Below are positions 2,412 to 5,393 of a DNA stretch of 9,170 nucleotides, one piece after another. Made by a program: the position numbers and the translations under genes. Origin of the DNA: a virus (lineage: Duplodnaviria; Heunggongvirae; Uroviricota; Caudoviricetes); IMG/VR virus record IMGVR_UViG_2554235184_000006. One strand, 5' to 3'. Below the pieces are notes generated by a model. It was not told the origin of the DNA, ran no database searches, and saw nothing but the letters and a program-made list of their open reading frames with translations. The number at the start of each line of letters is the position of its first letter. Position 1 is the first letter of the stretch.

Positions 2412-2435
2412 ATCGCGTATGTTTCGTATAAATCT
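2395..2435 (+). promoter_or_regulatory. Candidate late promoter (PR'-like) with possible Q-utilisation region
   Basis: TTGCAA (2395-2400), 17-bp spacer, TATGTT (2418-2423); a second -10-like TATAAAT at 2427-2433 could act as a sigma70 pause element as in lambda PR'. Sequence-only prediction. Confidence 0.25.
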
Positions 2436-2472
2436 GATATTTTGCCGATTTTGTACGTGATGGCAAAGTAAG

Positions 2473-2500
2473 AAAAAACCACCGCCAGGTGGTTTTTTTT
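2473..2500 (+). terminator. Rho-independent terminator (candidate tR')
   Basis: AAAAAACCACC (2473-2483), loop GCCA, GGTGGTTTTTT then 8 T in total (2493-2500). A-tract/T-tract symmetry suggests it could work in both directions. About 62 nt after the Q stop. Confidence 0.6.
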
Positions 2501-2623
2501 ATGTCCGAAAATCGCGTCAGTACAGTAAACGCGCTGGTGGTTGCGAATACGGGTCTTTCAGCTTGCCGGCTTTTTCGACAAGAGTTATTGGTATGTCACG
2601 TTAACCGGAAAAGGGAAAAAGAC

Positions 2624-2821
2624 ATGCTAAAACAGCAGGATATGACAGAAGCCGCCAGAGTGGTGTTTAATGAATTAAGCGTTACCGACCCGGCGACAGT
2701 CAGGGAGATTGCACAGAATACTTACCTTTCACGCGAACGCTGCCAGTTAATACTGACCCAGCTTGTTATGGCGGGTCTGGCAGACTATCAGTTTGGTTGT
2801 TACAGACACCTTCAGTCCTGA
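2624..2821 (+). CDS. Small winged-helix protein (PapI/FaeA-like), 65 aa
   Basis: ATG 2624 with AAGGGA RBS (2611-2616). Segment TVREIAQNTYLSRERCQLILTQLVMAGLA resembles the recognition-helix region of PapI/FaeA-type regulators. The track ORF 2489..2821 starts with GTG inside the terminator T-tract and has no RBS, so the shorter form is preferred. Confidence 0.45.
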   Translation: MLKQQDMTEAARVVFNELSVTDPATVREIAQNTYLSRERCQLILTQLVMAGLADYQFGCYRHLQS

Positions 2822-2835
2822 AGGCTTTTTTATTT
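2809..2835 (+). terminator. Rho-independent terminator overlapping the stop codon of the small wHTH gene
   Basis: CCTTC (2809-2813) pairs with GAAGG (2820-2824), followed by TTTTTTATTT (2826-2835). Short stem, so moderate confidence. Confidence 0.45.
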
Positions 2836-3134
2836 GTGGTAAATGGGCGGCTGGTGGGTGTGGTGGTTGTTGCTTTCCCGTTGCTGAAAAAGAAAACGCC
2901 AGACTGTTAGCCGGGTATCAGTTAGCGGGAGAAATTTTTAAATACTTCACAATTCAGGCGGTTGACTGTTGTCTGGTTTGCGGGGAGTTTGTTAAAAGAA
3001 ACTGGCATGGTGAATCCCCCTGTGCGGAGGGGCAATCAGCGAGTAGGTATATGGGATAATCGCGGATTCAGGTGCTGGTACTGAATTCACCGGGAGGCAC
3101 CCGGCACCATGCAATGGCACATAGCGCCACTCTC

Positions 3135-3170
3135 CAGCCCCTCTCCGGAGGGGCTGTTTATATTGATTTT
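3135..3170 (+). terminator. Rho-independent terminator at the edge of the AT-rich island
   Basis: Perfect 9-bp stem CAGCCCCTC (3135-3143), loop TCCG, GAGGGGCTG (3148-3156), followed by TTTATATTGATTTT. Sits between upstream + strand transcription and the 3' end of the minus-strand gene 3191..3526. Confidence 0.6.
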
Positions 3171-3190
3171 GTCAGATGTGAGTAAACTCC

Positions 3191-3526
3191 TTATGGACTT
3201 TGTTGTTTTAGCCCATAAGGACATATTTGCAGAGTGCAACGGTTATTAAAGCATTCATTCAATACGTTATCTGTATTTGTAGGGCATTCCTGGCTGTTTT
3301 TGATTAAATTCCAGAATGTTTTATTGAATGGTACTACGTTGTAAATGGTTACAGGTAGCACTTTGTTATTGAGCATGATACCTGTGTGAGTCAGTGTAAA
3401 TATACTTTCAGGAGGTAAGAAAGCATCCGATTGATACCAGATTATTAATTTTATTTTACTCCATATGACTGAAAAAGATATTCCGCATGATGGCTGGATA
3501 ACTGTATCAATCACAATCCACTTCAT
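3191..3526 (-). CDS. Hypothetical Cys-containing protein in an AT-rich island, 111 aa
   Basis: Minus-strand ATG (3524-3526) with AAGGAA RBS 5-6 nt upstream. Composition is strongly AT-rich compared with flanking phage genes. Opposite orientation to the late operon. Six Cys, four of them in the C-terminal [26 protein letters not shown]. No family recognised. Confidence 0.55.
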
Positions 3527-3786
3527 TTAGTTTCCTTGTTTATGCCTTGCTGGTGATGTTCTGAAAAGTATAAATGATATTTTTGATTGTAAACCATAGA
3601 GCAGAATTATTTTTCTGATGTTGTTTATTGTTTATTTAAATGCAGGGTGGTTTATATCTCGTCTTGTAGTTTATCCATGCATATCTGCTTGATGATGAGG
3701 TTTTTATTTAAGGTATGGTTTTGTGTTTTTTCTGTATTACATGTCAGGTATTTTAAAGAATCATTTTTCAGATGGTGGAAAGAACC

Positions 3787-3975
3787 ATGGCATTTAAACA
3801 CTATGATGTTGTCAGGGCGGCGTCGCCGTCAGATCTTGCGGAAAAGCTGACACATAAACTGAAAGAGGGCTGGCAGCCGTTTGGTAGTCCGGTGGCCATA
3901 ACCCCTTATACCCTGATGCAGGCGATTGCAGCAGAAGGTGATGTGGTGGTCAGTGGTGCAACTGAGCCGGAGTGA
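3787..3975 (+). CDS. Small conserved phage protein (possibly the DUF1737-type protein found upstream of holins), 62 aa
   Basis: ATG 3787 with GGTGGAAAG upstream; the in-frame ATG at 3772 has no RBS. Translation MAFKHYDVVRAASPSDLAEKLTHKLKEGWQPFGSPVAITPYTLMQAIAAEGDVV looks, from memory, like the small protein commonly annotated just upstream of S in Stx-type lambdoid prophages. The family name is unverified. Confidence 0.55.
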   Translation: MAFKHYDVVRAASPSDLAEKLTHKLKEGWQPFGSPVAITPYTLMQAIAAEGDVVVSGATEPE

Positions 3976-4217
3976 TACTACGTCATCGTACTGGCCCGGC
4001 ATTCCAGGCCATAAAAGACGGTCTGGCAGTGGGACTAAATGCACTGACGCTGACGGATATTACCAAAAATGCAACGTATGGCGTTGAGATAGAAAGTCTG
4101 GTGCTGGAGATAAATGCACCGGCATCATCATAAAAAGTGAGCCAGTCAAATGGAAGGTATCGTTAAACTCACCGGTAGTGTCAGTGGGTCGTCTGAGACG
4201 CCTGCATGAGTTATCAG

Positions 4218-4498: not shown

Positions 4499-4502
4499 AG
4501 TG

Positions 4503-5393
4503 ATGAATAAAAAATATGAACTGGTTGTTAAGGGGATAAATAATTACGGGGATAAGGTTACTGTTACTGTGAAGTCGGAAGGTGACGGGCAAGCGTCGCT
4601 GTTGTTGCCAGATGTGGCGATTAGTCTTGACCGTACTGAAGGTGCCACGCTGGAGTTTTACGAAGCTGAGGCGAAAAAGCAGGCGAAGCAGTTTTTCATG
4701 GATGTTGCTGCCGGGTTATGTGAATGGAACGAACCGTTGCCGGAAAAGCGCCCCGTAATTTTAGAGGCGCAGGATGTGTTGATAACCTACAAAGGAAAGC
4801 TACCGGGAAGAATTACTTGTTCTCTGAAGATGCCGCCGTCAACACTGCGGTCAGAAAAAGATGATGTTGAATCACGTATTGAAAAACTGGAGAGCTACGT
4901 CGTTGAGCTGAATAAGAAATGGTCGATATTGGTGCCTTCTGGCGATGAAAAGCAGTTTGCTGCGTTTGACGATTATTGTCGGAAAGTGATGAGCAGAAAT
5001 CTCGCAGAGTGTTTCAGTATTCATAATGATAATTTCAGTGACCCGGAATGGGAGTGTAACCGGCCATCCTTTGTTGTATCCGGTGATGCTGGGAAAATAA
5101 CCATCTCAGAAAATGGGAAAGTAACACCTCCATCGCACCAGCACAGTGAGGAGCTCATTGAATTTGCCATTGATTACCTGAAGAACAATAAAAAGCAGGG
5201 GCTGATGAAGCGCGTTGGCCGTTGCATGGGATATCTTCAGGTAGCCGCTGAGATTGAAGCGCTGGCCAGTGGTGCTGATAAGGATGCAATTGTGCGGGAG
5301 GCTCTTCTTCGTGATTTTAATACTCCACCCTTTAAAAAAGTGCCGGCTTACTGGCTTCATCCGGGGCTGACTTATCTTAAAGTGCGTATTTAG
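4503..5393 (+). CDS. Hypothetical hydrophilic protein inserted between holin and endolysin, 296 aa
   Basis: ATG 4503, 5 nt after the holin stop (TAA 4496-4498), with GGGGAGAG RBS (4487-4494); stop TAG 5391-5393. Long uninterrupted ORF with no TM segment or signal peptide and a K/E-rich composition. No family recognised. Confidence 0.7.
   Translation: MNKKYELVVKGINNYGDKVTVTVKSEGDGQASLLLPDVAISLDRTEGATLEFYEAEAKKQAKQFFMDVAAGLCEWNEPLPEKRPVILEAQDVLITYKGKLPGRITCSLKMPPSTLRSEKDDVESRIEKLESYVVELNKKWSILVPSGDEKQFAAFDDYCRKVMSRNLAECFSIHNDNFSDPEWECNRPSFVVSGDAGKITISENGKVTPPSHQHSEELIEFAIDYLKNNKKQGLMKRVGRCMGYLQVAAEIEALASGADKDAIVREALLRDFNTPPFKKVPAYWLHPGLTYLKVRI

Follow-up and report, generated by a model that had tools for sequence, protein, structure and literature searches.

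A predicted minimal winged-helix gene, orphaned by a deletion from an M.EcoGI/GII-type methyltransferase cassette in an E. coli lambdoid prophage

In phage Mu, translation of the toxic DNA-modification gene mom is unlocked by Com, a 62-aa zinc-finger RNA-binding protein whose gene overlaps mom with no terminator between the two. The controller (C) proteins of restriction-modification systems are Xre-type helix-turn-helix (HTH) dimers, which bind C-boxes and control the endonuclease. The closest described enzymes to those discussed here are M.EcoGI and M.EcoGII, 349-aa methyltransferases that methylate adenine in any sequence context, in DNA and also in RNA, according to their description (Murray et al. 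2018, PMC5778455). That paper also states that constitutive M.EcoGI or M.EcoGII is deleterious and leaves cells sick, that the enzymes are silent in lysogens, and that phage 1720a-02 carries a very similar enzyme. A methyltransferase that is toxic and yet silent in lysogens calls for tight control, and the available text of this original description notes the non-expression in lysogens and leaves the silencing unexplained. It describes neither a gene upstream of the enzymes nor a leader, and the word 'upstream' does not occur in that text (PMC5778455). Here we describe a small gene that in most relatives lies directly upstream of such an enzyme. We found no paper or experiment on this open reading frame (ORF) in the literature, and its association with an M.EcoGI/GII-type methyltransferase and a structured leader is previously unreported.

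The window, by which we mean the whole 9,170-nt stretch analysed (IMG/VR record IMGVR_UViG_2554235184_000006), is the late-regulatory and lysis region of an E. coli lambdoid prophage, and 489 nt of it are 100% identical to many complete E. coli genomes. Genes for a DUF968 protein (302-1360) and RusA (1361-1729) are followed by the gene of a 231-aa late antiterminator Q (1716-2411, + strand; Pfam Phage_antiter_Q PF06323, E = 2.2e-82), which the identical E. coli locus L001 annotates as 'antitermination protein Q'. In the lambdoid layout, pR' lies immediately after Q and its transcript is terminated at tR' (PMC7547250). By this architecture, positions 2412-2472 (+ strand) would be a Q-specific spacer holding pR' and the Q-utilisation site; the promoter scan called no + strand promoter there, and homology with phages carrying other Q types begins only at 2475. 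Terminator 1 (2473-2500, both strands), a hairpin followed by T8 with a folding energy of -16.7 kcal/mol (core hairpin 2481-2493, extended stem 2473-2498), is the likely tR' and 5' boundary of the cassette described below. In an alignment of 19 loci that span several genera (alignment A5), most have a hairpin with a T-run at this position, with a different stem sequence. If StxS is a guide, the short transcript running from pR' to tR' could be a small RNA. Upstream of the 65-codon ORF, Rfam gave sub-threshold matches only; those over terminator 1, at 2467-2542 (- strand) and 2418-2502 (+ strand), were to STnc370 (36 bits), the Phe leader (28) and isrK (19), and they seem to be driven by the hairpin. 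Terminator 2 (2809-2830, + strand) is a CCTTCA/TGAAGG hairpin (2809-2824, -6.8 kcal/mol) over the stop codon of the ORF, followed by CTTTTTT; its stem shows compensatory changes in Enterobacteriaceae-type loci and it is absent from four Proteus/Providencia loci (alignment A3). Between 2200 and 3800 there are five terminator-like sites, compared with 1.5 ± 1.2 in shuffled sequences. A sequence-only reading of this DNA had placed a 65-aa ORF between two terminators just after Q, and this arrangement was confirmed.

Downstream, outside the cassette, the neighbouring gene is that of the small RNA STnc100 (2976-3165, + strand; Rfam RF02076, 132 bits against a gathering score of 47), which ends at a strong hairpin at 3135-3156; a 2026 preprint relates STnc100 to the prophage PasD small RNAs. 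An intact iraM gene (3191-3526, - strand) is carried as cargo between Q and the lysis genes, and iraM is also seen after a methylase-tRNA block in O104:H4 and E. albertii. IraM is an anti-adapter that protects RpoS from RssB. After iraM come genes for DUF1737, a holin, DUF1327, a lysozyme and Rz/Rz1, then the small terminase subunit; the window contains no tRNA genes. The RefSeq annotation of the identical locus L001 lists the late genes at 3772-3975 and 4500-5393 (DUF1737, YdfR/DUF1327) as truncated, and since several late genes are so annotated, the prophage may be defective.

The ORF itself (2624-2821, + strand; RefSeq WP_001309418.1) runs for 65 codons from an ATG at 2624 to a TGA at 2819-2821. 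A Shine-Dalgarno (SD)-like AAGGGA (2611-2616, + strand), read directly from the sequence, lies 7 nt before the ATG, and a purine-rich AAGG/AGGG is kept at this position in most aligned loci. Some gene callers use a 110-aa reading with a GTG start at 2489, whose upstream stretch is conserved as DNA only; we prefer the 65-aa reading because the MLKQQDMT N-terminus and the CATG start are conserved and the upstream stretch has non-triplet indels. The protein matches the profile of PHROG 331 (phrog_331), an uncharacterised phage protein family, over residues 1-64 (E = 5.2e-36). Full-length family members have 63-69 residues and share, down to 32-40% identity, an MLKQxDMT N-terminus and an almost invariant CQLILTQL helix, and the helix-3 residues C40, Q41, T45 and Q46 are invariant in the family. 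E. coli-type alleles with their usual neighbour gave a dN/dS of 0.10 and orphan copies of these alleles 0.18; the highest value, 0.22, was that of the window's allele against all others. This allele differs from the family consensus by three changes, T10A, G27R and R62H, and residue 27 is variable in distant members. A search of 5.8 billion proteins yielded 274 clusters, all from Enterobacterales prophage contexts. Because an exhaustive profile search of 1.84 billion representatives gave just 85 members, of which many are frameshifted fragments, we regard the family as small and narrow; it spans Escherichia to Proteus and Plesiomonas. At locus L288, a 75-aa ORF (1479-1706) upstream of a 60%-identical methylase is a very distant relative of the protein (HMM E = 0.003) in which the CQLILTQL motif is absent, which suggests that the family is wider than sequence searches show. 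The ORF predicted from the sequence is thus a real gene, conserved and under selection (dN/dS 0.10-0.22) in lambdoid prophages of Enterobacterales.

To describe the fold, we used an AlphaFold2 model built with 32 diverse homologues (pLDDT 91.6, pTM 0.78), which replaced a poor earlier model from a shallow alignment (pLDDT 66.7). The model is a canonical winged helix, with a three-helix bundle containing the HTH (helices at residues 9-16, 26-33 and 37-49, with a beta bridge at residue 24) and then a beta-hairpin wing (strands 53-56 and 59-62), as in the winged-helix superfamily. As modelled, the protein is a minimal (63-67 aa) winged helix. Pfam returned only sub-threshold winged-HTH matches, the best of them to TrmB (PF01978; 19.4 bits, E = 9.4e-4, gathering threshold 25.6 bits), and several other winged-HTH families scored close to it. 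As no Pfam family reaches its gathering threshold with this protein, 'TrmB family transcriptional regulator', the name that RefSeq uses for relatives, denotes similarity and not membership. NCBIfam gave nothing meaningful for the 65-aa protein, and the defence-system models had no meaningful match to it. Compared with the winged-HTH domains of the MarR, ArsR, BlaI-MecI, IclR and TrmB types, it is a bare domain, without a dimerisation or ligand-binding extension, and unlike generic DNA-binding domains of these types it is acidic (pI 5.6, net charge -1.4), a property seldom seen in proteins that bind DNA on their own.

The sequence-only reading had seen in this protein a PapI/FaeA-like small winged helix, that is, a co-regulator that would act with Lrp at pairs of Dam-methylated GATC sites to switch fimbrial operons, and had proposed that it could rewire host fimbrial or adhesin expression in lysogens. 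The small winged-helix fold stands, and the protein shares with PapI/FaeA its size (about 65-77 aa), its stand-alone form and an HTH core in register; the supposed PapI/FaeA-like recognition helix is a generic pattern. The 65-aa protein had no match to Pfam FaeA (PF04703; gathering score 20.7 bits) at E ≤ 1, whereas PapI itself, taken as a positive control with a sequence identical to PDB 2HTJ over residues 5-77, scored 110.1 bits (E = 6.5e-32). The family profile did not retrieve 2HTJ from PDB sequences at E ≤ 10, and 2HTJ was absent among the matches listed by either structure search. An hhalign comparison of the family with PapI did align the HTH cores with 63% probability, but in a generic HTH register with 18% identity over 44 columns. 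The genomic setting differs as well: the gene lies in a prophage late region with no fimbrial operon adjoining it, and its relatives have a DNA methyltransferase as partner. No GATC occurs between 2168 and 3832, leaving about 450 nt clear upstream of the gene and 1 kb downstream. In the window as a whole GATC is under-represented, with 19 sites against about 35 expected from base composition. Nothing we found supports the rewiring of host fimbriae, and we consider the PapI/FaeA identity, which is now highly improbable, to be largely refuted. The ORF should not be annotated as PapI/FaeA, nor confidently as TrmB.

What lies next to the gene in its relatives was more informative. When loci were seeded with the methylase, the winged-helix gene was present upstream in 137 of 149, at a spacing of 75-190 nt (about 150 in the E. 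coli type), and about 80-95% of the loci seeded with the winged-helix gene have the methylase downstream. In phiP27, Stx2a phages and Klebsiella and Salmonella prophages alike, the small ORF is followed after about 150 nt by a PF01555 methyltransferase of about 350 aa. In a species-representative set of 36 loci (Escherichia, Kluyvera, Citrobacter, Klebsiella, Buttiauxella, Mixta, Erwinia, Proteus, Providencia and Plesiomonas), 33 of the 35 with room for it carry the methylase 75-190 nt downstream (137-154 nt in most), and the linkage holds where the winged-helix protein is only 40-63% identical. Within IMG/VR, the small gene accompanies the E. coli-type methylase in 76 of 76 loci (73 of 73 by a stricter count) and the Proteus-type methylase in 64 of 76, and starting from the small gene the methylase is found in 63 of 77 loci and missing from 14. 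The pair is present in at least 1911 of 5426 complete E. coli genomes. In O104:H4 (locus L208) the gene that comes immediately after the winged-helix gene codes for a beta-class methylase of 349 aa, and phage 1720a-02 likewise carries its M.EcoGI/GII-type enzyme straight behind the small gene, so that both of these known loci resemble the window in the small gene and differ from it in still holding the methyltransferase. M.EcoGIX was ruled out as the partner; it is plasmid-borne, and the partner is of the M.EcoGI/GII type. In the defence-system search, the cassette methylase matches generic type II methyltransferase models. The further suggestion of the sequence-only reading, that the protein regulates the adjacent cargo, therefore comes closer, with the qualification that this cargo is a methyltransferase in the relatives and is missing from the window.

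The flanks of the pair vary. Upstream, at least four antiterminator types occur, namely Q of the 231-aa, 127-aa and 192-aa types and, in O104:H4, a different 273-aa antitermination protein; downstream, the cargo may be tRNA-stx, hicAB or different holins. Because both sides vary, the winged-helix gene and the methylase travel as a unit, and together with their surroundings they form a mobile late-region cassette consisting of a terminator, a promoter-like block, the winged-helix gene, usually a second terminator, usually a leader of about 130 nt, and the methyltransferase. An antidote-like asymmetry, with the methylase never occurring without the small gene, was considered from the 76 of 76 E. 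coli-type loci and rejected, as in 12 of the 76 Proteus-type loci with the methylase no winged-helix gene could be detected (the leader is kept in 10 of these 12). These 12 methylase-only loci weaken an antidote-like dependence, and together with the 14 of 77 loci lacking the methylase and with the window itself they show that the coupling is not obligate either way. Adjacency alone could explain the co-inheritance of the two genes.

The stretch of about 130-150 nt between terminator 2 and the methylase is a leader with a conserved, covarying structure in most cassette loci. In alignment A4 (L002 4310-4448, L208 about 3219-3348 and 14 other loci), it has 32 base pairs, with 95.8% of cells paired and compensatory changes at nine pairs; none of 500 shuffles reached these statistics, and slid controls were 25-47% paired. 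The bases immediately before the methylase ATG, where no SD is evident, are paired in the third helix. Rfam had no match in the leader interval at E ≤ 5, and the leader may be an undescribed cis-regulatory element. On some Morganellaceae-type phage contigs (L265 at about 1880-2000; L263, L274, L278 and L286 at about 1830-2000), the methylase and leader occur with no winged-helix gene, and in L265 a CTTGCCG...AGAGTTACATGTGT block is fused directly to the leader's 3' end, which is how a deletion of the small gene and of most of the leader would look.

Such a leader invites comparison with Com and mom. In both cases a small gene lies upstream of a toxic DNA-modification gene whose start is sequestered in RNA structure and which is expressed late, and the winged-helix protein might likewise bind the leader RNA, or the methyltransferase itself, and so switch, limit or target the enzyme after induction. 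The covarying leader, with its third helix over the bases preceding an ATG that has no evident SD, is in line with this, as is the presence of the RNA-binding winged helices SelB and Z-alpha among the close structural matches of the 65-aa model, and the acidic charge would suit a protein partner. The differences are that Com is a zinc finger and the present protein a winged helix, that a terminator intervenes here, and that the elements occur separately: 42 Proteus-type loci have the winged-helix gene and the methylase without the leader, 10 loci have the leader and the methylase but lack the winged-helix gene, and neither target is present beside the orphan copy in the window. Because the leader and the small gene occur apart in these 42 and 10 loci, an RNA-binding role of the Com kind is weakened, and we hold this explanation, in either its RNA-binding or its protein-partner form, to be quite unlikely.

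The absence of the methylase from the window can be traced to a deletion. Homology of the window to sequenced phages covers exactly 2475-2861, whichever Q lies upstream, comprising terminator 1, the ORF, terminator 2 and about 40 nt more, and it is at 2852-2861 that BLAST alignments with E. coli genomes and phages break. Window positions 2479-2861 align with L208 2858-3238 at 93%, and 2844-4006 with L208 5262-6424 at 99%. The 18-nt sequence TGGGCGGCTGGTGGGTGT is common to the two aligned segments, being found at 2844-2861 in the window, at 3221-3238 in L208 (leader start) and again at 5262-5279 in L208 (inside the DUF3927 gene), so about 2.0 kb of an L208-like stretch is missing. The junction (2843-2861, + strand) thus consists of the first 19 nt of the leader, of which 18 nt (2844-2861) are microhomologous to the interior of the DUF3927 gene. 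Lost are the leader, the 349-aa methyltransferase, three tRNA genes and the 5' part of DUF3927, of which 15 codons remain (annotated at 2863-2910 in the identical genome). A tblastn search found no methylase in the window, and with no methyltransferase within about 75-190 nt of the small gene, the cassette here is a truncated one. A deletion of about 2 kb between 18-nt repeats therefore orphaned the winged-helix gene between its two terminators. Of 5426 complete E. coli genomes, 201 show the junction-spanning arrangement, as does one phage isolate, PhiR5_1.

With its partner deleted, the gene in this window might be a functionless leftover of a decayed cassette in a degrading prophage. The annotated truncation of its neighbours in the identical locus (DUF1737, YdfR, DUF3927), its three departures from the consensus and its dN/dS, the highest of those calculated, fit such decay. 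On the other hand, the ORF is intact and its dN/dS is well below 1, one of the three changes falls at position 27, which varies in distant members anyway, and the same deleted arrangement recurs in PhiR5_1 and the 201 genomes. We therefore regard a functionless relic as unlikely. That orphan copies keep a dN/dS of 0.18 suggests a role for which no methylase in cis is required.

How the gene may be transcribed bears on what that role could be. A promoter- or operator-like block (2562-2597, + strand) consists of CTTGCCG (2562-2568), 12 nt, AGAGTTAT (2581-2588) and then GGTATGTCAC. Together with terminator 1 (2473-2500), the part at 2562-2588 (CTTGCYG-N12-AGAGTTAY) aligns with counterparts in 18 other loci; in these 19 loci, whose proteins are as little as 40% identical, AGAGTTA never varies and CTTG hardly does (alignment A5). 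The geometry is promoter-like, with a -35 element, a 17-nt spacer, a -10 element (TATTGG; TAYNTG), about 7 nt to the start, a 26-nt leader and the SD, and the promoter scan did not call the block because the T that ends a consensus -10 is missing. For the 5' leader of the gene no conserved RNA structure was predicted, and the 19-locus alignment has no conserved palindromic box upstream of the gene. Q-modified polymerase ignores terminators. A conserved, covarying terminator 2 would therefore be useful mainly against Q-independent transcription, which argues that the small gene has a promoter of its own.

We propose, with a probability of roughly 0.45, that the winged-helix protein is a nucleic-acid-binding autoregulator or controller of the methylase cassette, orphaned in this window by the deletion. 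The gene would be driven independently of Q by its own weak promoter at about 2563-2591, and this transcript would be stopped at terminator 2, which would insulate the methylase; the gene would also be carried on the Q-antiterminated late transcript. The protein would bind nucleic acid and either help to hold the promiscuous, toxic methyltransferase off in lysogens or set when it is expressed once the prophage is induced. Judging from sequence conservation, helix-3 residues C40, Q41, T45 and Q46 and the AGAGTTA block are the most plausible candidate protein-target pair for autoregulation. As with C proteins, a small regulator gene comes directly before a gene whose product modifies or cleaves DNA and may be toxic; the differences are that the protein is a winged helix rather than Xre-type, that an endonuclease is absent, and that no palindromic box turned up. 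Several features weaken the controller reading: the promoter-like block has no consensus -10 and was not called by the scan, the protein is acidic, the coupling to the methylase is not obligate, and orphan copies stay under purifying selection.

The same layout could belong to an independent moron, that is, a small transcription factor expressed in the lysogen and acting on host or other phage genes, with the methylase nearby only through a shared cargo slot. Flanking terminators of its own and a promoter-like block are the classic moron layout; the terminator is present and conserved, and the block is conserved but non-canonical, and no canonical promoter was called. The gene persists intact where the methylase is missing (dN/dS 0.18, purifying selection; 201 E. 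coli genomes and PhiR5_1), and methylase-only loci exist; both would also be expected of a moron. However, the pair is kept across divergent hosts and flanks (137 of 149 loci), which is above the expectation for unrelated neighbours in mosaic lambdoid genomes. We consider an independent moron doubtful, though a serious candidate: the acidic charge and the retention of orphans leave room for a methylase-independent role, be it as a moron or through action in trans on incoming phages.

The last of these possibilities is a variant of the proposed controller, in which the protein is a dedicated methylase controller, made in lysogens from the gene's own promoter and keeping the toxic enzyme off jointly with the terminator and the structured leader, and orphan copies such as that of the window are retained because they also act in trans on the cassette of an incoming related phage and so block its anti-restriction methylation. 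We rate this variant as very unlikely; if true, the orphan winged-helix gene would be a prophage 'anti-anti-restriction' immunity function. The window itself holds only the orphaned half of the cassette. M.EcoGII is a widely used reagent for chromatin and protein-DNA mapping (MadID, BIND&MODIFY), and the winged-helix gene, its terminators and the covarying leader provide a concrete, testable regulatory module for enzymes of the M.EcoGI/GII type.
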